Shown: one piece after another, positions 20,517 to 64,000 of the stretch
Layout: every line of letters begins with the position of its first letter
Numbering within the stretch: position 1 is the stretch's first letter
IMG/VR virus record: IMGVR_UViG_3300043252_000011
Coordinates: 1 to 64,000 of that record
Direction: 5' to 3' (one strand)
Origin: a virus
Lineage: Duplodnaviria; Caudoviricetes
Length of the DNA stretch: 64,000 nucleotides
Notes under the pieces: model-generated
Database searches by the model: none
Told to the model about the DNA's origin: nothing
Seen by the model: only the letters and a program-made list of their open reading frames with translations
Translations under genes and position numbers: made by a program

Positions 20517-20755
20517 ACCGTCGCAAAGCTACGTTAGTTCTTGCCAGCATAGTTGGCGTCATGGCCCACAAAGTCAAAGCCGAAGATCAGCAGCCATCTT
20601 GGTCATCATCAGGTATCACTCCGATGGCGAACATTTCCTTAAGACCGACGTCAATGATTTTCGATCTCAAAGGCTTCAAAGACTATACATTCCACTTAGA
20701 AGGCAAAACGCTAACTTTCACACCCGAAGAATTATTCGAGGCACTTTCATCATGA
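20513..20755 (+). CDS. hypothetical protein with RR-type N-terminal signal
   Basis: MNRRKATLVLASIVGVMAHKVKA; ATGA overlaps on both sides. Confidence 0.55.
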   Translation: MNRRKATLVLASIVGVMAHKVKAEDQQPSWSSSGITPMANISLRPTSMIFDLKGFKDYTFHLEGKTLTFTPEELFEALSS

Positions 20756-21303
20756 ACAACGACCCAACAAACCCCTTCGCCGGCATCCCCGGCGCGCTGA
20801 AGCCAAACCCGCCGCCTGGGGTGCCGGAGCCGCAAACTGCCGGCGACGCCATGGCGAGCGCGTCACCATTCAAAGAACCGCTGGACGTTGATGAAATCAT
20901 CAAAAACCTGACGCTCGATCGGCCGCTGAAGCTGTTCATTCCGAACAAGGAAAAATATCCACAATACGAATTCAGGATCATCAACAGCATTCCGCATGAA
21001 ATTGCGGACGCCCACAACAAAGGCTTTCGCGAAGTCACCGACCCGGAAATGTCGGCGCTGTTCCGCGATCTTGTCGCCGGTACGGACAAGGAAGGCAAGG
21101 CATTTCGGCCGATTCTGTGCGCGCGTTCAAAGGCCGTTGGCGAGCACATCCGCAAACGCTATCGCATTCAGCTTGCCAGTCTGTACGCCGGCATGGACCC
21201 GAGCAACAAGGATCTGGCCGGTAAATACACGTCCAACGTGGACGCCAAAGATGGCACCAAAGGACAATTCACCGGGGCCGGTTTCCGTATCAAGACGGGG
21301 TAG
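20752..21303 (+). CDS. conserved head-module protein
   Basis: YEFRIIN...KGFREV...ILC pattern; follows scaffold. Confidence 0.65.
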   Translation: MNNDPTNPFAGIPGALKPNPPPGVPEPQTAGDAMASASPFKEPLDVDEIIKNLTLDRPLKLFIPNKEKYPQYEFRIINSIPHEIADAHNKGFREVTDPEMSALFRDLVAGTDKEGKAFRPILCARSKAVGEHIRKRYRIQLASLYAGMDPSNKDLAGKYTSNVDAKDGTKGQFTGAGFRIKTG

Positions 21304-21306
21304 AAA

Positions 21307-21522
21307 ATGATACTGTGGGCTGTATGGTTAGCCGTCATCGCAGGCAGTTTTGCGCTGTTTGAGGGGCAGGCACTTTACCGGGGCACCCCGACATTATCGC
21401 GCTGGGTGTGGACCGTAAGCAAAGCGTGGCCGCCGTTCCCATACGTTGCCGGTTTTATTACCGGATTTCTCGCCTGCCATTTTTGGTGGGGCGGAATTGC
21501 GTGCTTCGCACCTGTACAATAA
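21307..21522 (+). CDS. small Trp-rich two-TM membrane protein (homolog of 60155-60394)
   Basis: FE..AL...PTLSRWVW...WPPFP..AGF.TGFL.CHFWWGG. Confidence 0.75.
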   Translation: MILWAVWLAVIAGSFALFEGQALYRGTPTLSRWVWTVSKAWPPFPYVAGFITGFLACHFWWGGIACFAPVQ

Positions 21523-21602
21523 AATCCGTACTGTGGCACGCAAGCCACACCATACGGGCGTATAATCTCCGCAGGGCATCACGCCCGATATAGGGGACCC
21601 AT

Positions 21603-22409
21603 ATGCGCAGACTTATGTTGCTCACCACGGCGTTGACCGCGCTGGCAATGCCGGCAATGGCAGCCGATATGGCGGTCAAAGCCGTTCCGCCCGTTCCGTA
21701 CGTCGCACCCGTTACTTGGTTTGTCGGTGTCCTTACTGAGGCCGACGTAGCCCAATCGAGCGTCAGCGGGACCAATGTCTTCGCCACAAGTCTCGCCAGC
21801 GGCGATCTGACGGCCACTGGTGGCTCGGTTGGCGGTCGAGTCGGTTTCATCGGCACCGGACAACTCGGCTGGTATCGAGGCATCCTGACCGGCGAATGGG
21901 CCAACATCTCCGGCACCAACAGCGTAGGCGCCACGGCGACCACAAGCGCCGCCAGTGCGTCGATCGCGAGCCGGTGGTCTTCAACCCAGGAGTTCGATAT
22001 CGGCGTCGAGTGGCTGCAGCGGATCACGGCGGCCCTTCCTACGCTCGGCAACATCAATCTGTTCCCGAGCATTACGCCAATCACCCCGAATGTCCCTGTC
22101 GGTACGCCCCGGCAATATATCGGTGCCGGCTTAAAGGAGGCCGGACTCAGTGGCTCGTTTGGCATGGCCAGCGGAACGACAGTCGGCGTCTATCCGATGG
22201 TCACTGGCGGCTTCATCTGGCCCACGCTCGGCACCAACGGCAAACCCAATGGCGGCGCAATCGATGCATCCGCCGGCATTGCTTTCCCGGTCAAGGGCTT
22301 CAGCATGGGGAACGTGTTCGCTACCAACGGCGCCCCGCTCACGTTCGGGGCTGGTGCCAATCTCGGCACGCAATACTGGACGCGGCTGAGCTATGACTTT
22401 GGTTTGTGA
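21603..22409 (+). CDS. outer-membrane beta-barrel (Omp25/RopB-like porin family)
   Basis: Sec signal then AADMAVKA; amphipathic strands; C-terminal LSYDF; SD gggga. Confidence 0.8.
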   Translation: MRRLMLLTTALTALAMPAMAADMAVKAVPPVPYVAPVTWFVGVLTEADVAQSSVSGTNVFATSLASGDLTATGGSVGGRVGFIGTGQLGWYRGILTGEWANISGTNSVGATATTSAASASIASRWSSTQEFDIGVEWLQRITAALPTLGNINLFPSITPITPNVPVGTPRQYIGAGLKEAGLSGSFGMASGTTVGVYPMVTGGFIWPTLGTNGKPNGGAIDASAGIAFPVKGFSMGNVFATNGAPLTFGAGANLGTQYWTRLSYDFGL

Positions 22410-22415
22410 TGCGTT

Positions 22416-22448
22416 TGGGGGCGGCTAACTGCCGCCCCCATTTTACTT
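22416..22448 (+). terminator. terminator after porin gene
   Basis: TGGGGGCGGC-TAACT-GCCGCCCCCA-TTTT. Confidence 0.8.
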
Positions 22449-25401: not shown

Positions 25402-25752
25402 CTACGGCGCCACCGTCGCCCCTGTATACGGAACGCCTGGTGTGGCGCTCTCCTGTTTAATGGCAGCGACAATTGCCGGCGTTGCCGCGATCACGTCGGG
25501 GTTATTCGGCAGCGCGTCAGCGGTCGCCTTGTCGGTAACAACCGTTGTCTTCGGCATCTTGCCCACGGTGTCTTTGAGCGACTGCGCACGAGTGACAATG
25601 ACGGGCCACAGAACCGCGCCGGCAGCAACCAAACTGTATATCAGCGTCGTCCAATCTGCGGCACCGAGCCCGAGCACACCTTTGGCAGCAAGCGCGCCCG
25701 CGATTGTGGCAATGATCGGAGCTAAGGTGGTTTGAAGCTGCGTTTTGTTCAT
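25402..25752 (-). CDS. putative holin
   Basis: Two TM segments; similar to 59926-60153; downstream of endolysin. Confidence 0.6.
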   Translation of the reverse strand: MNKTQLQTTLAPIIATIAGALAAKGVLGLGAADWTTLIYSLVAAGAVLWPVIVTRAQSLKDTVGKMPKTTVVTDKATADALPNNPDVIAATPAIVAAIKQESATPGVPYTGATVAP

Positions 25753-25815: not shown

Positions 25816-26064
25816 CTAGTTCTTCTTATTGAGTCTGGCCTCGATCTCGCCAGTTGTTGGGCGTGTCTGCTCTAGTGTTTTAATGCGATCTTCTAGACGA
25901 TCACTCTCACGTTGATAATCACTTTTCAAACCTTCATATCGTTCTTTGGTATTTTTAGAAAATTCTTCGTGCTCACGAATGGACAGGCTTTTACCGAGCA
26001 ACTGAGCCGCGAGACTCAGGGCGGACAAAACTACGGCCCCAAGAGCTATGTAGGAAGAATCCAC
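25816..26064 (-). CDS. N-terminal TM plus coiled-coil lysis-cassette protein (homolog of 58326-58577)
   Basis: YIALGAV.LSA..LA.Q.LGKSLSIREHEEF. Confidence 0.75.
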   Translation of the reverse strand: MDSSYIALGAVVLSALSLAAQLLGKSLSIREHEEFSKNTKERYEGLKSDYQRESDRLEDRIKTLEQTRPTTGEIEARLNKKN

Positions 26065-26084: not shown

Positions 26085-26801
26085 TTACCCCGTCACTATA
26101 GCGGCATCAATTACCGCCCATGTATGCGGCCCCGGCATGCCGTCAGCCGTCAGCGAATGCTTCGCCTGAAACCATTTGACGGCTGCTTTAGTAAGATCGT
26201 CGTACTGTCCGTTCACAGCCAGCGGTGGCGCGTAGCCGAAGCTATTGAGCGCGATTTGCAAATTCTCAGTGGTGTACAGCCCGACTACGGCCGACGCTGA
26301 CGCAGGCGGCGCTACCTTGGCCACCGCCGCCTCGAATACCTGCCGCCACGCTTCGGTGCCGTCGTGACCGCCGGGACCGCCGCCCCAATCGTTGAAGATA
26401 TTACCGCCAAGGCGCATTTGCGGATGCCGCTGCCCGTTCGGGTCCGTAGGCAGCCCTTGGTCAGTGAAGCCGTGGATAAGGTCGCTGCCGGCCATCACAG
26501 TCGCAATCGCGGCATTCATCTTCGCTTGCAGCGCCGGATTGGCTTGAAGCTGCCTGATAGTCCGGGGGTACGCACCCCGATTGTACGGCCCGTAGAAACC
26601 ACTATGCAGCATTGAAAGCACGGTTTGCTTCCAACCGCGCGAGTTGCAATACAGAATGCGGTTAAGAAGGCTTTCGAGGCACGGAACCGGGTGCGCGCCG
26701 TCTTCCGTTATCATCATGGCGCATACTTGGTCATGCGTAGTCGGGTCTGCTATCTGAGCGGCGAACTGAGCGCGTTGCTGTGCGATGTACGGATTGGTCA
26801 T
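26085..26801 (-). CDS. endolysin with C-terminal peptidoglycan-binding domain
   Basis: LQIALNSFGY...TKAAVKWFQ..HSLTADGMPGPHTW; N-terminal E...ESLLNR hydrolase-like motif. Confidence 0.8.
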   Translation of the reverse strand: MTNPYIAQQRAQFAAQIADPTTHDQVCAMMITEDGAHPVPCLESLLNRILYCNSRGWKQTVLSMLHSGFYGPYNRGAYPRTIRQLQANPALQAKMNAAIATVMAGSDLIHGFTDQGLPTDPNGQRHPQMRLGGNIFNDWGGGPGGHDGTEAWRQVFEAAVAKVAPPASASAVVGLYTTENLQIALNSFGYAPPLAVNGQYDDLTKAAVKWFQAKHSLTADGMPGPHTWAVIDAAIVTG

Positions 26802-52076: not shown

Positions 52077-52470
52077 GAATGTCGCCAACTTAGAGGTATT
52101 CCGATGCACCGACCGAGCGAATTTTTAGCCTGGGCCGTCGAGACATTCGGTCCGGTTGCCCTCAAGCGCAAAGAACGCCTTATGCGCTTTACTGAGGAAG
52201 CAATCGAACTCGCGCACGCGGACGGCCTTAAGCGGGCTGATTTGGATAGGCTTTTGGACCGCGTTTATTCGCGTCCTGCTGGCCATGTGTGGCGCGAAAT
52301 CGGCCAAGCGCAGGCGTGCCTAGAAACCTACGCCCAAAGCATCGGCGTGTCTGCGGACGAACAGGCGCAGAAGGAATTTGATCGGGTGCGCAAAATCCCG
52401 AAAGAGGAATGGACGAAACGCCACGCGGCCAAGGTCGGCCTTGGTATCGCCGGCTGATACGGAATTAACA
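52077..52470 (+). repeat. 394-bp exact direct repeat, copy 2
   Basis: Identical to 1-394. Confidence 0.97.
52104..52457 (+). CDS. MazG-like protein (identical to 28-381)
   Basis: Same translation. Confidence 0.55.
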   Translation: MHRPSEFLAWAVETFGPVALKRKERLMRFTEEAIELAHADGLKRADLDRLLDRVYSRPAGHVWREIGQAQACLETYAQSIGVSADEQAQKEFDRVRKIPKEEWTKRHAAKVGLGIAG

Positions 52471-57788: not shown

Positions 57789-58022
57789 ATGGTCATGAGC
57801 CAATATCTTTCGCTTTACGATGCCCAGACTGAAATCCTGCAGTGGCTTGAATCGAAAGGCCACGCGGTTGATTATGGTTCTGGCAAACCTCTCGATGATT
57901 GGCGGGTATGGCAGATGTGCAAAAGAAAGCGGCGGTTTCAGATGCGTCCAGAGGAAGATGAGCGTCGCCGCGTGTACGCCTGTCCGCATTGCGAGGGCTG
58001 GCATTTTACCCGGCGCCGATAG
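57789..58022 (+). CDS. small zinc-binding protein
   Basis: CKRKRRF...YACPHCEGWHFT. Confidence 0.6.
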   Translation: MVMSQYLSLYDAQTEILQWLESKGHAVDYGSGKPLDDWRVWQMCKRKRRFQMRPEEDERRRVYACPHCEGWHFTRRR

Positions 58023-58050
58023 TAGACAAGTTAACACGCAGGAGCTTGGA

Positions 58051-58329
58051 ATGAGCAATACTGACGGACAGCGCGATATCACCTTGGCGATGGAAGCAGA
58101 ACTCGCGACAGTGTCTAAGACCACCGTGGCAGCAGCAGCCAAAGCGGCGGAAGATCAAGACATCGCCTATGTGATGACGCAGCAGATCAACTGCATCATC
58201 GATGCCAATGTGCGGCTTCGCGGCTCGCACCGCCTCGTCGGCGCCGATGTCCAGGCGTGGGTCAACATGGTGGATTATCTGACGCGGGAAAAGGAAGGAC
58301 TTACCGCAAAGCGCCAGCGGCAGAACTAA
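58051..58329 (+). CDS. hypothetical protein
   Basis: SD aggag. Confidence 0.6.
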   Translation: MSNTDGQRDITLAMEAELATVSKTTVAAAAKAAEDQDIAYVMTQQINCIIDANVRLRGSHRLVGADVQAWVNMVDYLTREKEGLTAKRQRQN

Positions 58330-58577
58330 TCAGCTTTCTTATCAAGCCGCGCCTCGATCTCGCCAGTTGTCGGTCGGGTCTGTTCAAGCGTCTTAACCCG
58401 ATCTTCGAGCCGGGTTGTCTCCCGCTGGTAATCACCTTTCAACTCATTCAATCGTTCTTTGGTGTTTTTGGCAAATTCCTCATGCTCGCGGATCGACAGA
58501 CTCTTGCCGAGCATTTGGGAGGCAAGAGTGATTGCAGAGAGGATGACCGCGCCAAGTGCAATGTAGGTGGGGTCCAT
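58326..58577 (-). CDS. TM plus coiled-coil protein (homolog of 25816-26064)
   Basis: Highly similar protein including GKSLSIREHEEF and TLEQTRPTTGEIEARL. Confidence 0.8.
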   Translation of the reverse strand: MDPTYIALGAVILSAITLASQMLGKSLSIREHEEFAKNTKERLNELKGDYQRETTRLEDRVKTLEQTRPTTGEIEARLDKKAD

Positions 58578-58930
58578 CAGCCATGCGGCAATTCAATCCG
58601 CCTCAACCGCTGCTCGTGGTCTTTCGTAATGTCTTTCAGGTCGGAATCAATCTGTGTCTCGGTCTTGATATGATCGTCGAGCTTGGTCGTCAGCACATTC
58701 AAATTGGTTATGGCCTGTTGCTGGGCATCGTTGATCTTGCTGATGGCGGTCCACTGCAATTGAATGCCGGTTTCGGATTTGGTTTTAACATCGACAAGCG
58801 TGCCCCAGGCCAAATAGATCGCGGCCGTGCCGGCGGCGCCGATGAGCGTGATGAGGATTCGGAATACCCAAGCGGTTGCCCGTTCCTTGGTCTCGACGAA
58901 TTCCTGTAGCGTCATGCCGATCCTGCTCAT
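58577..58930 (-). CDS. TM plus coiled-coil protein
   Basis: Single TM, C-terminal DHEQRLRRIE. Confidence 0.65.
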   Translation of the reverse strand: MSRIGMTLQEFVETKERATAWVFRILITLIGAAGTAAIYLAWGTLVDVKTKSETGIQLQWTAISKINDAQQQAITNLNVLTTKLDDHIKTETQIDSDLKDITKDHEQRLRRIELPHG

Positions 58931-58992
58931 TTCGCGCCCGCCAATACTAACGTCTTCGAAGTTTCGTGCTACTCATCCACAAGTCCCGGTAC

Positions 58993-59027
58993 GAAAGTAT
59001 GGGGCCGCATTGGCGCGCGCCCCATAC
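58993..59027 (-). terminator. terminator after second porin gene
   Basis: GTATGGGGC...GCCCCATAC then TTT on the minus strand. Confidence 0.55.
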
Positions 59028-59054
59028 CGACTGACTGACGCTACTCCCTCGACG

Positions 59055-59852
59055 TTACAGGCCGAATTCGTAACTCAACCGCGTCCAATACTGCGTGCCG
59101 AGGTTGGCGCCCGCACTGAGTGTGAGCGGAGCGCCGTTTGTCGCGAAGGCGTTACCCATGGTGAAACCCTTGACCGGGAATGCAACGCCGGCAGAAGCAT
59201 CGATCGCGCCGCCGTTCGGCTTGCCATCGGTGCCGAGCGTAGGCCAAATGAAGCCGCCAGTAATCATCGGGTAAGCGCCAACGGTCGTGCCGTTCGCGTT
59301 ACCGAAGCTGCCACTGATTCCGGCTTCTTTGAGGCCAACGCCGACGTATTGCCGTGGTGCTCCGACAGGAACGGTCGGGGGAATCGGCGTGAAGGTCGGA
59401 AAGTTCGTCACCGGCAACGTCGGGAGGGCCGCATAAATCTTTTGCAGCCATTCAAAGCCGATGTCGAATTCCTGCGTCGCGGCCCATCGACTTGCGATTG
59501 CTGCGCTGGCTGCGCTTGTCGTGGCAGTTGCCTGCACCGTATTGGTGCCAGTGATATTCGACCATTCGCCGGTCAATTTGCCTCTGCACCATCCGATAGC
59601 GCAGTGGCCGACATAACCGACTTCGCCGCCGACCGCGCCACCCGTCGCCGTGAGATTGCCGCTTGCGAGACTCGTGGCAAAGACATTGGTGCCGCTGACA
59701 CTCGACTGCGCGACATCAGCCTCGGTGAGGATACCGACAAACCAGCTGGAACCGGCCGCGGTAGCTGCCGGTGCCTTCAATGGCAAGTCTGCCGCCAGAG
59801 CCGGTACTGCCAGCGCGGTAAGCGCCATGGTAAGCAGTAGCAATTTGCGCAT
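59055..59852 (-). CDS. outer-membrane beta-barrel (homolog of 21603-22409)
   Basis: Signal then AADLPLKA; ends LSYEFGL; SD aggagg. Confidence 0.8.
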   Translation of the reverse strand: MRKLLLLTMALTALAVPALAADLPLKAPAATAAGSSWFVGILTEADVAQSSVSGTNVFATSLASGNLTATGGAVGGEVGYVGHCAIGWCRGKLTGEWSNITGTNTVQATATTSAASAAIASRWAATQEFDIGFEWLQKIYAALPTLPVTNFPTFTPIPPTVPVGAPRQYVGVGLKEAGISGSFGNANGTTVGAYPMITGGFIWPTLGTDGKPNGGAIDASAGVAFPVKGFTMGNAFATNGAPLTLSAGANLGTQYWTRLSYEFGL

Positions 59853-59925
59853 GGAAACCTCCTGTTGAGTTACGTGGTCAACCATACGCTTTTAGTTGTG
59901 TCTTTGGTGCAACACAGTTTGGAAA

Positions 59926-60153
59926 TCAGCGACCGATCGCGCCTCCCGGCTGCGTGCCAGGGGAGTTTGCTGGAGCGCCAATGACCTTGCCGGTGCGATT
60001 GTTTACTACACTCCACACTGCGGCGCCCACCGCAACTATGGCGGCGGTAATGTCACCGACATCGCTCTGGGTAATCCATCCCTTTGCGACCGCATAGGCG
60101 AGAGCCGGCGGAATGATAGCACGCAGAATTCCAGTGATTTGATCGTAGTTCAT
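59926..60153 (-). CDS. putative holin
   Basis: DQITGILRAI...AKGWI...AAVWSV, two TM segments. Confidence 0.7.
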   Translation of the reverse strand: MNYDQITGILRAIIPPALAYAVAKGWITQSDVGDITAAIVAVGAAVWSVVNNRTGKVIGAPANSPGTQPGGAIGR

Positions 60154-60154
60154 G

Positions 60155-60394
60155 TCACTTCCCCTGATTGACTGGTTTGAAGTTTACGATGCCACCCCAC
60201 CAAAAATGACAACACAGAAAGCCGGTCAAAAACCCGGCAATCCATGGAAATGGCGGAAACGCGGCCGTGATGTTCCAGACAAAACGCGACAGCGTGGATG
60301 TTCCGTCATAGAGCGAATAGCCTTCCATCACCGAGAAGCTGATGACGATCAGCAATAGCCACACCGCCCATTTGATGCTGCCTTTCATCATCAT
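60155..60394 (-). CDS. small Trp-rich two-TM membrane protein (homolog of 21307-21522)
   Basis: STLSRFVW...FPPFPWIAGFLTGFLCCHFWWGG. Confidence 0.75.
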   Translation of the reverse strand: MMMKGSIKWAVWLLLIVISFSVMEGYSLYDGTSTLSRFVWNITAAFPPFPWIAGFLTGFLCCHFWWGGIVNFKPVNQGK

Positions 60395-60972
60395 ACCGTC
60401 TCCCTCGTGAAGGTTACTGTCGGATCAAGTTTTGCAATCATCCACAAAAGCGGCGCACAGCCAGGTTGCGGGTCCATGACGGTCGATGACCAGACATGAT
60501 CGCGAATCCATTTGCCGGGTTGCTGAATGTTCGTGCAGCCCCAAATGTACGACGATGGATGGCCCCACGCTTCCGAGCCGACGCCATTGAACAGCAGCAT
60601 ATAGTAGAGCTGCTTCTCGAGCCGCCAATCGCTGATGCTGCCCCAGCCCTCGACATTGATAGCATCCACACCACCGTCAATGAAAGCATTTGGGCCAATG
60701 AAAGGACCGCGCCCCACGGGCACTTCCGTGGTTCTGAGCGTCAGCGTTTGGCCGTTGCCTAAATAGGTTTTGAAATTCGCATCGCTCTCGCGGCGATGAA
60801 TGCAAGCGAGCATTTGCCATGGCACACGGGTCTTGGATTCGAGTACCTGATATGTGACTTTGTTGTTGATCGCAAACTGCGCCTCCTCCGTGAATGCCTG
60901 CACGCGGCCGGCATTGATGGTCATTGCGTCCCACCATTTCGCATAGCGCGGCCAGATGTCGGAGTAGCGCAT
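60391..60972 (-). CDS. lysozyme-family endolysin (COG5526-like)
   Basis: VPW..IH.RES..F..YLGNG...VP.GRGPF...SSYIW.CTN...GKWIRDHVW...D.QPGC..LL. Confidence 0.8.
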   Translation of the reverse strand: MRYSDIWPRYAKWWDAMTINAGRVQAFTEEAQFAINNKVTYQVLESKTRVPWQMLACIHRRESDANFKTYLGNGQTLTLRTTEVPVGRGPFIGPNAFIDGGVDAINVEGWGSISDWRLEKQLYYMLLFNGVGSEAWGHPSSYIWGCTNIQQPGKWIRDHVWSSTVMDPQPGCAPLLWMIAKLDPTVTFTRETV

Positions 60973-63512
60973 TAGTTGATCCCATAAACGAGAATTGAGC
61001 CGGACGTGATATTGCCGCTGTCCATAAGAACCTGGAAGCCATCAACGACGCCTGCGGTGTTCCAGTAGCCCGACATTTGCCCGGTAAAAGGAGGCGCGGA
61101 GCCCGACACATAATTCGCAAATCCACCGATCATGCAAATTGCATTGGCGGACGGATTAGTAATCGTGATCCAACCGCTCATACCGGGAGCCGAGTTGGCC
61201 AGTGAAAATCCATTTGCATCGAGCGGGTAACTTAATGGAATATAGCCTGTCGGGCCGACAGAACTCCCGCTTGATGAATTGATCCAACCGCCAAAGCTGC
61301 TGAGATAACCGCTCGATTTGTAAGCACCGCCGGAATGGATTTGCAGTTCTAGGATTTTTTCATTCGTTGCCGGAACGATGGCCTGAAATACCAGCAGATA
61401 GGACGTGTAGGTATTGTTGATCGGGCAAGTGCCGGATGTCGGCGAGGCATTGTTGATCGATGTCGAATTGCTCGCGGTGATCGTGCATAGGTAGGTCATC
61501 GCGCCGGTGCCGTTGGCACTCGCCCACGTTCCATCACCGCGCCAGAAGGTTCCTGCGCTGGCGCTGGTGCCGGAATTGAGATTGCTGACCGGAAGATTGC
61601 CGGTGACGCCGGTGCTGAGCGGCAAGCCGGTGGCATTTGTCAAGACTGCCGCGGATGGCGTGCCAAGCGCCGGCGTCGTCAATGTCGGCGACCCGCTGAA
61701 AACAAGCGAACCCGATCCGGTTGTGCTTTCCGCCGCCGCTGCGCGGAAGATGCGCCATGCCGCGCCGTCGTAGCCGATGAGCAAATCGAGTGCGCCGCCG
61801 CCGCCGGTAACCGTCGTATTCGGCAGCTTGCACGCGCCATCCCCGCAATTCGCCGCGAGGCCGTCGATGATGTGGGAGATTTGGCCGGCGGTCGGGGAGG
61901 CGGGGAGGCCGGCGTAGGTGTGGGCGGTGATGATCGGATCAGTGATCGTCGGCGCTTGCTTGCCAACAAGAATGCCGGTGCCGCTTATACCTTCGCCGTC
62001 GCTGTCTTGATAGCCAAGAGAAAAATTACATCCGCCGCTTCCCGGAAATATGCTGGCGCACGCCGTGGCGTTCGGCAAATTAAGAAAGCCGGGGCCTTGA
62101 CCGTTGAATTGCGAGCCGGTGCCTGTACCTGAAACGATCCATCCCGTGACATCAACGCTGGAATCAACCGCCTGTGCAAAGTTGCCCGACCAAGAGACCG
62201 AACTGCCGATTGTTGTAGTGCCGCCTGCCGCTAGATTGGCTCCGGCACTCAGGTTCCAATGATTGATGAAAGTAGTATTAGATAAAAGCGTTTCATTGGT
62301 GGCATTGACCGTAACGCCTTTGCCGGTTGCGGAAACATGGGAGCCTGAATTTCCCCAAGCGCCCCAGACGATTCCGCCATAATCGCAGATGGCTATCTGT
62401 CGGCATTGAATGCCTGGCCCGGCGCCATTGACAGCAGTGATCTCCAAATTGTTGACGCCGGCTTGGCCGCCGTCTTGGAGCAAAATACCCGTCGCGCCGC
62501 TTGGCACTTGGAGCACGACGTTCGACGGCGTGATAGAATTACCGTTGATCGAGAGAAGCTGGCCTGAGCTGCCGCCGCTATTTCCTTGATATGTGCACAG
62601 CGCGCCAGCAGTCGCGGTTGCGTAAGAACCACCCGACCCGTCGAGAAGCTGAATCGGTCCCGCCGCTCCTAAGAATGTCGCAATCTGTTTTACAAACGAA
62701 CACGCCGTCGCCAGCGTGCAGGCATTCCCCGAACTGAGACAATTGCCGCTGCCGGTTGCGCTCGGCGCGGCGTAGAGCGGGAGACCGCCGACGGGCGCAA
62801 CTGCGCCCCACACCGCAACGTCTTTTAGGAGCGATCCGGTGGAGTTATTCCAAATTGCTACATCGCCGATTGTGGATGAGGACGGCCCGACGATATTGCC
62901 AGTCCCAGGCCCGGCAGGAAGGCATGTTGGCGTCAATCCATTCGCACCGAGATTAAGAAACGCCCCAGCACAAGCACTCGGCTGCGGCAGTGGTCCCATC
63001 GTGTTGCCGGGTTGCGAAAACAGCCCGCGCCCGGTCAGGTCGTTGGTCTTGTCCCAAAGCTCACGCTCGACCGTGGTGGTTTCGGTCATGCGCTGGTTGA
63101 GATCGCGCGCCGCAACGCCGCGGCCTTCAGTGAATTGCGTCAACTGCCGCGGCCGTTCGGCGCCGACGATCTGCACTGTGCCGGTCTGGACCGCGTTGAA
63201 CGTCAGCACCGCATTGGTGATCGGCCGCGGGATGGTCGACAGCGGGCCGGTGGTTGAAGACAGCGACCAGCCGAAATTTGGGTCGGTCGAGAGATAGCGG
63301 ACGCCGTTCACCCAAACTTGCAGCCACGCATCGATGTCCGACCCACTGGCAAACAACGCCATATTCACAGCACAACTACAATTATTAGCGCTCAAACTAT
63401 ATGACGTTCGTCGCTCAGCATCAGGTAGCGCCGGCACAGCAGGAGGCGCCTGAGCAGCAGCAATACGCAGGCTCAACAACAGAAGTAAAATGATTGCCAT
63501 TGCTCGGCGCAT
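60972..63512 (-). CDS. tail fibre/spike with Sec signal peptide and T7 gp17-like N-terminal anchor
   Basis: [21 protein letters not shown]; RTSY...V.VNG...LTF...F..G...A.DLN...E anchor pattern; many Cys; [18 protein letters not shown] fibre repeat. Confidence 0.72.
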
Positions 63513-63513
63513 T

Positions 63514-64000
63514 TTACACTCCAAAGCTCAGTGCCCAAACCGGAGTCATGGGAGTTACGCGCGAGCGGCGGTTATTTGCTTGTTCTTTCGCTGTTGCCCA
63601 ACGACAATTTTCGGGCGAATAATCGCCGTTGACATTAATGCGATCAAGGCTGTGCTTGGAGGATGGCCTGCGACCCATATCATCGAGAAAGTTTTGATAA
63701 TCTTGGCGCCATCGCACACAAATAGCGATGCCGCGTCCGCCATATCTCGAATAGCATTTATTGTTTCGATTATAACAGCGACTTCTCATGGCGGCCCATG
63801 CTTTATACTCAGGGGTAGCATCTGTTTCGCCATGAGTTCTTGATCTATGACCGAGCGTTGCCAAGTTTTCTCGACTAAGGCACCCACAACTTCGGGTATT
63901 TCCAGTGCGCAGCAATGAACCAAAAACATCGGATTCGCCGCCGCAATCACATTTGCAGCGCCAGCGACCCTTTCGCTCATATCTCTGATAACTTGACGAA
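63514..64000 (-). CDS. HNH homing endonuclease (5' partial)
   Basis: SCGC, W.AMRSRC...[34 protein letters not shown]. Confidence 0.88.

Follow-up and report, generated by a model that had tools for sequence, protein, structure and literature searches.

Two otherwise unrelated, uncultured tailed phages of soil carry the same pair of genes, one for a small Trp-rich inner-membrane protein and one for an outer-membrane beta-barrel, in the first 64 kb (64,000 nucleotides, hereafter the window) of the 98,428-bp IMG/VR record IMGVR_UViG_3300043252_000011. According to our analysis of the sequences, the barrel may be an accessory, wall-tethered protein that remodels the surface of the infected cell. 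We favor this reading tentatively and with somewhat less than even confidence. For the small protein, the most likely role is that of a holin or holin partner.

The record is flagged with direct terminal repeats, and self-comparison revealed that positions 1-394 are identical to 52077-52470 and positions 1-127 to 98302-98428. It is therefore a figure-eight assembly in which the genomes of phage A (1-52076) and phage B (52077-98301) are merged; these correspond to phages 1 and 2 of a first-pass annotation made from the sequence alone. The two have one 394-bp stretch in common. An all-against-all comparison of open reading frames (ORFs) listed about ten pairs, some of which are antisense shadows of the barrel. 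The few proteins common to both phages include the small protein (63% identity, E 2e-33), the barrel (77%, E 8e-128; DNA identity 71-74%), an 82/83-aa transmembrane (TM) coiled-coil protein (79%) and a protein of about 320 aa (72%). The terminal identities and ORF positions bear out the annotation's view of two phages with the same two genes, whose coordinates agree with the ORFs (Table 1). Its remark that the proteins are highly similar and their codons diverged also holds. In the comparison of A with B (Nei-Gojobori), the proportions of synonymous (pS) and nonsynonymous (pN) differences were 0.64 and 0.14 for the barrel, 0.78 and 0.27 for the small protein, and 0.80 and 0.13 for the coiled-coil pair. 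Strong purifying selection thus acts on all three, and their synonymous sites are saturated.

The signal peptide, the structural model and the matches of that model indicate that the larger protein is an outer-membrane beta-barrel, as the first-pass annotation had proposed. An AlphaFold 2 model made from 51 sequences is a barrel with nine strands called (predicted local distance difference test, pLDDT, 69.6). The best Foldseek matches of the model were the TM domain of OmpA, NspA, Ail, OmpW and OprF, all with a probability of 1.0 and with E-values of 5.5e-5 to 1.7e-3, except for OmpW (5.7e-3); a Legionella Dot/Icm-associated porin also ranked high. The closest clusters in the ESM Atlas were bacterial OMP_b-brl proteins, and hhalign related the N-terminal half to two OMP_b-brl-type barrels of sister phages (probabilities of 95% and 87%). 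On account of these likenesses we regard the protein, with moderate confidence, as a diverged branch of the OmpA/OMP_b-brl world, Sec-exported and presumably built of 8 or 10 strands. A sequence-profile search of solved structures returned noise only, and the family had no match in Pfam, PHROGs or NCBIfam. The family is small: a set of 5.8 billion proteins contains 52 clusters of it at 90% identity, and one of 1.84 billion contains 74 representatives at 50% identity. At present it is without a Pfam model or annotation.

In every member the signal peptide ends in AxA and is followed by Ala-Asp, the mature N-terminus, and then by a Pro-rich linker. Across 51 barrel sequences reaching down to 31% identity, neither A20 nor D22 varies, and A21 shows a conservation of at least 90%. 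Barrels of other types in these phages have the same Ala-Asp N-terminus. Ala-Asp is the motif by which barrels of Brucella and Agrobacterium are joined covalently to peptidoglycan through L,D-transpeptidases, as reported in PMC10787603 with reference to Godessart et al. (2021), and the bacteria with such anchored barrels are described in PMC10787603 as lacking Braun's lipoprotein. By analogy, we infer that the phage barrel would be tethered to peptidoglycan.

Conservation along the rest of the protein is uneven. The most conserved segment is the top of the first hairpin (residues 47-74), which would face outward by topology, and the most variable is the periplasmic turn T1. An insertion of 35 residues separates strands 4 and 5 on the periplasmic side. 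When the C-terminus was inspected for an aromatic beta-signal, the last strand was found to end in ..SYxF and to be followed by 2-5 extra residues. An outer-membrane enzyme of the PagL, PagP or OmpT type was considered and rejected, the family having no invariant His or catalytic triad. Three soil RNA libraries, each from a different study, contained contigs that match the barrel and holin genes exactly, which speaks for presence only and not for level, strand or transcription.

The barrel gene has the anatomy of an independent unit. Non-coding DNA of 76-370 nt precedes every barrel gene and holds a conserved leader with a TGT-N12-ACA dyad and a GCGTA box, to which most loci with a lysis cassette add a GTAAATTCA box before a strong Shine-Dalgarno sequence. 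The combined leader pattern has two matches in the window, exactly the two barrel leaders. The dyad was found in 17 of 32 leaders of Ala-Asp barrels as against 2.4% of random windows, and it also precedes other Ala-Asp barrel types. RNAalifold predicted no structure in the leader; a hand-made helix of 8 pairs was no better than shuffles and its covariation was not significant, so an RNA hairpin was set aside. Since covariation gives a hairpin no support, the dyad is more likely a protein-binding dyad or a promoter element. A scan of 58000-61200 for sigma-70 promoters found none. Within the leaders (21532-21575, 59873-59916 on the minus strand and about 20 other loci) a TTGCAC-like hexamer lies 20-21 nt upstream of a TAnnnT box, a spacing that does not fit a sigma-70 promoter. 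The dyad overlaps this spacer, and the over-long spacing resembles that of MerR-type regulated promoters. A sigma-54 promoter or a NifA upstream activating sequence was also discarded, the dyad spacing being N12 and not N10. On the 3' side, the barrel gene of phage B is followed by a terminator-like hairpin (58999-59025), and hairpins of this kind were seen behind the barrel gene in five or more further loci (L019, L021, L023, L004 and L027; related loci are cited by such L numbers).

The position of the gene varies as well. In 16 phage-A-type relatives, found via the neighboring gene of 183 aa (homolog of 20752-21303 in the window), the slot is occupied by the present barrel family in about 10 loci, and the barrel is inverted in L158-160. 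Elsewhere the slot holds an Ala-Asp barrel of 242 aa (L150), barrels of the OMP_b-brl type (L155 at 26.4 bits; L157 at 40.6 bits, which exceeds the cut-off and makes it a true PF13505 member), another Ala-Asp barrel (L162) or a 1,100-aa fiber-like gene with a signal peptide (L161 and L164), and in L165 and L168 no barrel was found within 4 kb downstream. The end of the phage-A-type head operon appears as a hot spot in L148-L168, with different barrels, the inverted barrel, an endolysin together with a barrel, and the 1,100-aa fiber-like gene. Of the 80 cassettes with the endolysins nearest to the phage B enzyme, 4 have the barrel and 76 do not; about 8 of the same 80 have a plausible lipoprotein, and the remainder have neither. 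We conclude from these comparisons that the barrel is dispensable in close relatives. Its own leader and terminator, its variable position and orientation, its presence or absence, and its replacement by like barrels suggest an accessory cassette inserted where operons end and not a fixed subunit of the lysis machinery.

The linkage to lysis genes is nevertheless marked. In about 20 of 24 distinct barrel loci the barrel lies on the same strand, 0.1-1.5 kb downstream of an endolysin gene and a gene for a two-TM holin-like protein. Six unrelated families of endolysin are represented (the Pfam-less one of 60391-60972, GH24, GH25, GH108, Rv2525c-like and the L004 type), which argues against inherited synteny as the source of the linkage. 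In at least 13 of the barrel loci, the cassette has a fiber-like gene with a signal peptide directly upstream. Both the lysis linkage and the neighborhood of exported fibers, anticipated by the first-pass annotation, were thus recovered across the homologs. As a separate observation, large fiber-like proteins with Sec signals precede most lysis cassettes, whether a barrel is present or not (e.g., L011, L013, L014, L021, L022, L026 and L109).

One to four genes 3' of the barrel there is nearly always a coiled-coil protein with an N-terminal TM segment. In phage B two such proteins follow, which we call cc117 and cc83, and the order of barrel, TM coiled-coil protein of about 115 aa and cc83 recurs in phage B, L109, L111 and L113. 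These neighbors fall into unrelated families (the cc117 type, the cc83 or 'MADGKGD' type, the cc128 type and others) and have no common C-terminal motif. Of the 39 loci with cc83, the barrel is present in 3, and about 13 of the other 36 have a lipoprotein. The proposal that the barrel is a specific partner of the coiled-coil proteins is therefore not sustained: the neighbors are unrelated, cc83 occurs without a barrel in 36 of its 39 loci, 76 of the 80 related cassettes have no barrel, L111 holds both a barrel and a lipoprotein, and the barrel gene appears as an autonomous, dispensable and exchangeable cassette. A complex prediction of the mature barrel with the periplasmic parts of cc117 and cc83 scored 0.00 and was counted neither for nor against binding. 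The cc83 family itself (a single TM helix in about 82 aa) is common among contigs of soil phages (L109-L147), usually directly beside endolysins of several kinds, and seems to represent a separate lysis-cassette protein that is as yet uncharacterised. A Lipase_3-like protein (223-241 aa) is encoded immediately behind the barrel or close to it in about five loci, among them L002:8801-9472, L004:3647-4372, L012 and L016. It always ends 12-35 residues past the GHSLG nucleophile motif, so that the usual Asp and His would be missing, and it has no homolog in the present record. It could be a lysis-cassette esterase (cf. mycobacteriophage LysB) or a truncated domain.

The first-pass annotation had found no lipobox-bearing outer-membrane spanin (o-spanin) in either lysis region and had named a nested Rz1-like lipoprotein as the finding that would speak against its proposal. 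Our scan of the coding strand of both lysis regions and of five related loci gave the same result, with no lipobox ORF with a credible signal, either nested or free. A 51-aa lipobox ORF at 59461-59616 was rejected as an o-spanin because it is antisense and its Cys is not kept in phage A. The barrel itself departs from an o-spanin in its signal and in its gene arrangement. It has no lipobox Cys, and its signal ends in AMA/AD or ALA/AD, a signal peptidase I site. It neither overlaps nor lies within a gene of inner-membrane spanin (i-spanin) type, 124 bp including the terminator-like hairpin separating it from cc117. Nor is it co-inherited with such a gene, the coiled-coil neighbors being of unrelated families and cc83 and the barrel occurring mostly apart. 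The cc117 protein matched TIGR03495, the model of the P2 LysB i-spanin, with an E-value of 0.084 and 13 bits, far below the cut-off of 92.75. A complementary distribution of barrel and lipoprotein spanin was also considered and dismissed, as most related cassettes have neither. A short lipoprotein of 35 aa, whose 17-residue mature part contains three Cys, recurs 3' of cc83 in several relatives (L114, L129-L134, L142 and L143), roughly +440 to +800 nt from where cc83 starts, and is a candidate for a minimal o-spanin in relatives without a barrel.

The small protein consists of two hydrophobic helices, the second ending in HFWWGG, with basic termini and, on the periplasmic side, a conserved loop with TLSR..W; both motifs are invariant in the family alignment. 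It belongs to no Pfam or NCBIfam family; a weak match was obtained to PHROG 3555, of unknown function, and the ESM Atlas returned unnamed clusters only. Its neighborhood was surveyed in 27 loci drawn through the small protein itself, of which 24 enter the upstream count and 23 had room downstream. A peptidoglycan hydrolase or its SH3 module stands directly upstream in 9 of the 24 (Phage_lysozyme, GH108, Amidase_2, Rv2525c-like, Peptidase_M15_4 or SH3), and in others this place is taken by a Pfam-less endolysin of the A3 type (phage B (W2), L030/L169). The gene often overlaps the upstream gene by 4 bp. The suggestion that the small protein behaves like a holin rests on this habit of following endolysins of many families, often with the 4-bp overlap. 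In hydropathy and charge distribution it agrees with a class II holin (about 70 aa, two TM segments, next to an endolysin), and searches of Pfam and NCBIfam placed it in no described holin family. Of the 23 loci, 11 have an Ala-Asp barrel 0.1-0.7 kb downstream, and these barrels are of at least five sequence types, which agrees with the pairing seen in the first-pass annotation; conversely, the small protein is present in only about one third of the barrel loci. The pairing is thus real and wider than one barrel family, and neither gene is strictly dependent on the other.

All barrel homologs come from soil metagenomes, many of them from contigs of 42-74 kb rated complete by CheckV. No relatives were detected in 185,579 species-representative bacterial genomes (GTDB) or in 50,697 deposited phage genomes. 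A tyrosine-integrase match, below the cut-off, was seen in one of 15 complete barrel-bearing genomes, and large serine recombinase domains were not found in the 15-16 complete barrel phages. Because integrases are essentially absent and bacterial genomes hold no copies, we take the phages carrying the barrel to be virulent, and lysogenic conversion, which the first-pass annotation cites as a known role of Lom/porin morons, is unlikely. Likewise, nothing places the barrel in the Ail/Lom family (PF06316), since there is no Pfam match, no copy in bacterial genomes and no integrase. Outside the window, at 85666-86439 of the record, phage B encodes a resolvase-type serine recombinase of 257 aa, too short for a large serine integrase.

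The arrangement of the two lysis regions is given in Table 1. In phage B the order is signal-peptide fiber-like protein, endolysin, small protein, Phage_holin_10 holin, barrel, cc117 and cc83, the same as read at first pass (fiber, lysozyme, membrane protein, holin, barrel and two TM coiled-coil proteins). The barrel ORF of phage B is open to 59885; the ATG at 59852, with an AGGAGG Shine-Dalgarno sequence 6 nt upstream, was chosen as the start. A plus-strand operon of phage A (17172-21303) has the small-protein and barrel genes at its end and opens with a 655-aa ORF, a candidate portal by position alone, with no PHROG match; the endolysin, cc82 and holin-like genes lie 3.4 kb away on the opposite strand. 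The endolysin family of phage B has invariant R61, E62, G89-P90-F91, G153-K154 and D158 (RE...GPF...GK..D) and counts 563 relatives in IMG/VR, both stand-alone and fused to PG_binding_1.

Table 1. Features of the barrel and lysis regions of phages A and B (window coordinates).
Feature	Phage	Coordinates	Strand	Length (aa)	Remarks
Small protein	A	21307..21522	+	71	Trp-rich, two TM, inner-membrane, class-II-holin-like; ORF call and A/B comparison
Small protein	B	60155..60394	-	79	Trp-rich, two TM; 4-bp overlap with endolysin stop
Barrel	A	21603..22409	+	268	Predicted outer-membrane barrel; signal peptide 1-20, mature N-terminus Ala-Asp; AlphaFold 2 and Foldseek
Barrel	B	59055..59852	-	265	Predicted outer-membrane beta-barrel; A/B comparison
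Barrel leader	A	21532..21562	+		Dyad TGT-N12-ACA, then GCGTA(TAAT) box
Barrel leader	B	59885..59916	-		Dyad and GCGTA box
Terminator-like hairpin	B	58991..59025	-		GC-rich stem of ~10 bp, then UUUCGU; just 3' of barrel gene
Endolysin	B	60391..60972	-	193	Pfam-less family; homologous to N-terminal catalytic domains of PG_binding_1 endolysins
Holin	B	59926..60153	-		Phage_holin_10, Pam3 gp28 family; Pfam E 7.8e-14
Signal-peptide fiber-like protein	B	60972..63524		850	Top of lysis-region order
cc117	B	58577..58930	-		N-terminal TM and periplasmic coiled coil, i-spanin-like topology; homologs in L113, L002
cc83	B	58326..58577	-		N-terminal TM and coiled coil; invariant SIREHEEF and TRPTTGE motifs
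cc82	A	25816..26064	-		Homolog of cc83, 79% identical; all-against-all ORF comparison
Two-TM holin-like protein	A	25402..25752	-	116	Architecture like Pam3-type holin and 133-aa L009 protein, by eye; no family match
Endolysin with C-terminal peptidoglycan-binding domain	A	26085..26801	-		PHROG endolysin families, E 2e-13

In the course of lytic infection the barrel would be exported, inserted by BAM (the machinery for beta-barrel assembly) and cross-linked to peptidoglycan by L,D-transpeptidases of the host, a fate for which the host Omp25/RopB-type barrels of Rhizobiales provide a precedent. It would then serve as an accessory remodeller of the cell surface, most probably by blocking adsorption or superinfection or by keeping progeny off cell debris, and no spanin would depend on it as an outer-membrane subunit; the small protein would most likely act as a holin or holin partner. 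Among the three options that the first-pass annotation offered for the barrel, exclusion or surface modification fits the anatomy of the cassette best, and the fiber anchor found no specific support. Several observations weigh against this interpretation. Nine strands were called where 8 or 10 are needed, in a model of moderate confidence. Tethering is an extrapolation, the Ala-Asp anchor being known from Rhizobiales, which may not be the host's group. In most loci the barrel lies inside a late operon of fiber, endolysin and holin genes, where late production would limit the usefulness of an exclusion protein. No recognisable spanin is present in these cassettes, which leaves the outer-membrane step unaccounted for; strongly conserved surface hairpins are untypical of known exclusion or adhesin barrels; and the candidate promoter role of the leader is at odds with the sigma-70 spacing and gains nothing from the non-significant hairpin covariation.

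Some of these points suit a different explanation, in which the barrel is the outer-membrane arm of a non-canonical disruption system that replaces the o-spanin lipoprotein: it would be tethered via Ala-Asp until the endolysin frees it, and would then break or fuse the outer membrane, alone or with cc117, cc83 and their analogues. We consider this possible but doubtful. It gains from the place of the barrel after endolysin and holin genes of six endolysin families (about 20 of 24 loci) and just before coiled-coil genes of i-spanin topology, in an order that phage B repeats with L109, L111 and L113, as well as from the absence of lipoproteins in the scanned loci, the faint LysB-like match of cc117 (E 0.084) and the virulence of the phages. 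The barrel, the small protein and cc83 are, moreover, three of the few proteins common to phages A and B, and the logic of an outer-membrane factor gated by peptidoglycan is attractive. Against it, the barrel is optional, being absent from 76 of 80 related cassettes and 36 of 39 cc83 loci, most of them also without a lipoprotein, and from sister phages of phage A that have no barrel at all. The coiled-coil neighbors are non-homologous and have no C-terminal motif in common; L111 has both barrel and lipoprotein; a separate leader and terminator accompany the gene, which in L158-160 is inverted; and in phage A a distance of 3.4 kb and a change of strand separate it from the lysis genes. For hosts that lack Lpp and fasten their outer membrane to the wall by Ala-Asp barrels in particular, the phage Ala-Asp barrel might be parked covalently on peptidoglycan, released by the endolysin and only then destabilise the outer membrane, which we judge unlikely; acting alone or with the coiled-coil proteins and the small Trp-rich protein, such a peptidoglycan-gated barrel may represent an alternative to spanins.

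The invariant tether motif and the interchange of different Ala-Asp barrels in one slot, which suggests that the property of being a tethered barrel may be what matters, would also be expected of an envelope stabiliser that adds barrel-peptidoglycan tethers until programmed lysis, a maintenance gene like psbA of cyanophages. We regard this as improbable: outer-membrane barrels are long-lived and their replacement within a short latent period seems needless, the very conserved surface hairpin is left unexplained, and we know of no precedent for phage-supplied barrel tethers. That the barrel is an anchor or conduit for Sec-exported fiber-like proteins is very unlikely. The fiber-like genes directly upstream in at least 13 barrel loci, and the one occupying the barrel slot in L161 and L164, are what could be expected of such a role, but exported fibers are equally present in the barrel-less relatives L032, L118, L125 and L144, a barrel of 8-10 strands has no channel for a folded fiber, and no co-variation of barrel and fiber was seen. 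Just as remote is a prophage-expressed moron of the classical type, such as Lom, NmpC or Bor, that would bring about lysogenic conversion. Its moron-like anatomy of leader, gene and terminator and its proximity to lysis and fiber genes, a position also taken by nmpC and bor in lambdoid prophages, stand against the absence of any relative in 185,579 bacterial genomes, the near absence of integrase domains from 15-16 complete barrel phages and the lack of a Pfam Ail_Lom match.

Among the closest known systems are the peptidoglycan-anchored OMP_b-brl barrels of Rhizobiales (Brucella Omp25/Omp31/Omp2b, Agrobacterium RopA/RopB; Godessart et al. 2021, as summarised in PMC10787603). The phage barrel has in common with them a Sec signal, Ala-Asp, a Pro-rich periplasmic linker and a small OmpA-like barrel of about 240-270 aa, and it shows a remote profile similarity to OMP_b-brl members. 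The phage barrel, whose anchoring is putative, differs from them in being encoded by virulent phages, in having no PF13505 match, in its 35-residue insertion between strands 4 and 5 and in its unusually conserved surface hairpins. In lambdoid phages, nmpC/lc and bor lie beside the lysis genes and lom among the fiber genes. Like Lom, NmpC (the Lc porin) and Bor, the present barrel is an outer-membrane protein whose gene has its own control signals, adjoins fiber or lysis genes, and is dispensable and variably present; those proteins, however, are expressed from prophages for the lysogen, whereas here there is no integrase, no prophage copy and no membership of their sequence families. With the Rz/Rz1 spanins of lambda the barrel has in common its place after the holin and endolysin genes and beside an inner-membrane protein with a periplasmic coiled coil, and a peptidoglycan-dependent restraint is conceivable; unlike them, it is no lipoprotein, has no lipobox, is neither nested in nor co-inherited with the coiled-coil gene, and is optional.

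The Llp protein of T5, Cor of phi80/T1 and Imm and Sp of T4 are small envelope proteins encoded near receptor-binding genes that protect the infected cell or the progeny; Imm is an 80-aa inner-membrane protein with two TM segments, and Llp, Cor and Sp act at the outer membrane or in the periplasm. The present pair resembles them as small envelope proteins of virulent phages near receptor-binding genes, but there is no homology, Llp and Cor are lipoproteins, and the translational coupling of the small protein to endolysins fits a holin better than it fits Imm. The class II holin, or pinholin, S21 of phage 21 has 68-71 aa and two TM domains. The small protein has the same size and two TM helices, and its gene lies end-to-end with the endolysin gene; it differs from S21 in having no family match, in the presence of a second holin (of the Pam3 type) and in the place of its phage-A-type form, beside the barrel and away from the endolysin.

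Outer-membrane proteins carried by phages are known mainly as conversion genes of prophages. What is new here is the peptidoglycan-anchor motif on phage barrels, their common dyad leader, the exchangeability of different Ala-Asp barrels and the recurrent pairing with one conserved inner-membrane protein, all of them in virulent phages of soil. Together these delineate a set of virulent soil phages with host-like barrels bearing the anchor motif, a common regulatory leader and, often, one conserved inner-membrane protein. If the barrels remodel the cell surface, they would constitute a new class of exclusion or progeny-protection device for hosts without Lpp; if their role is in lysis, they would help to explain how phages without spanins open the outer membrane. 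On either reading, the barrels would be natural probes of the tethering of outer-membrane barrels to peptidoglycan.

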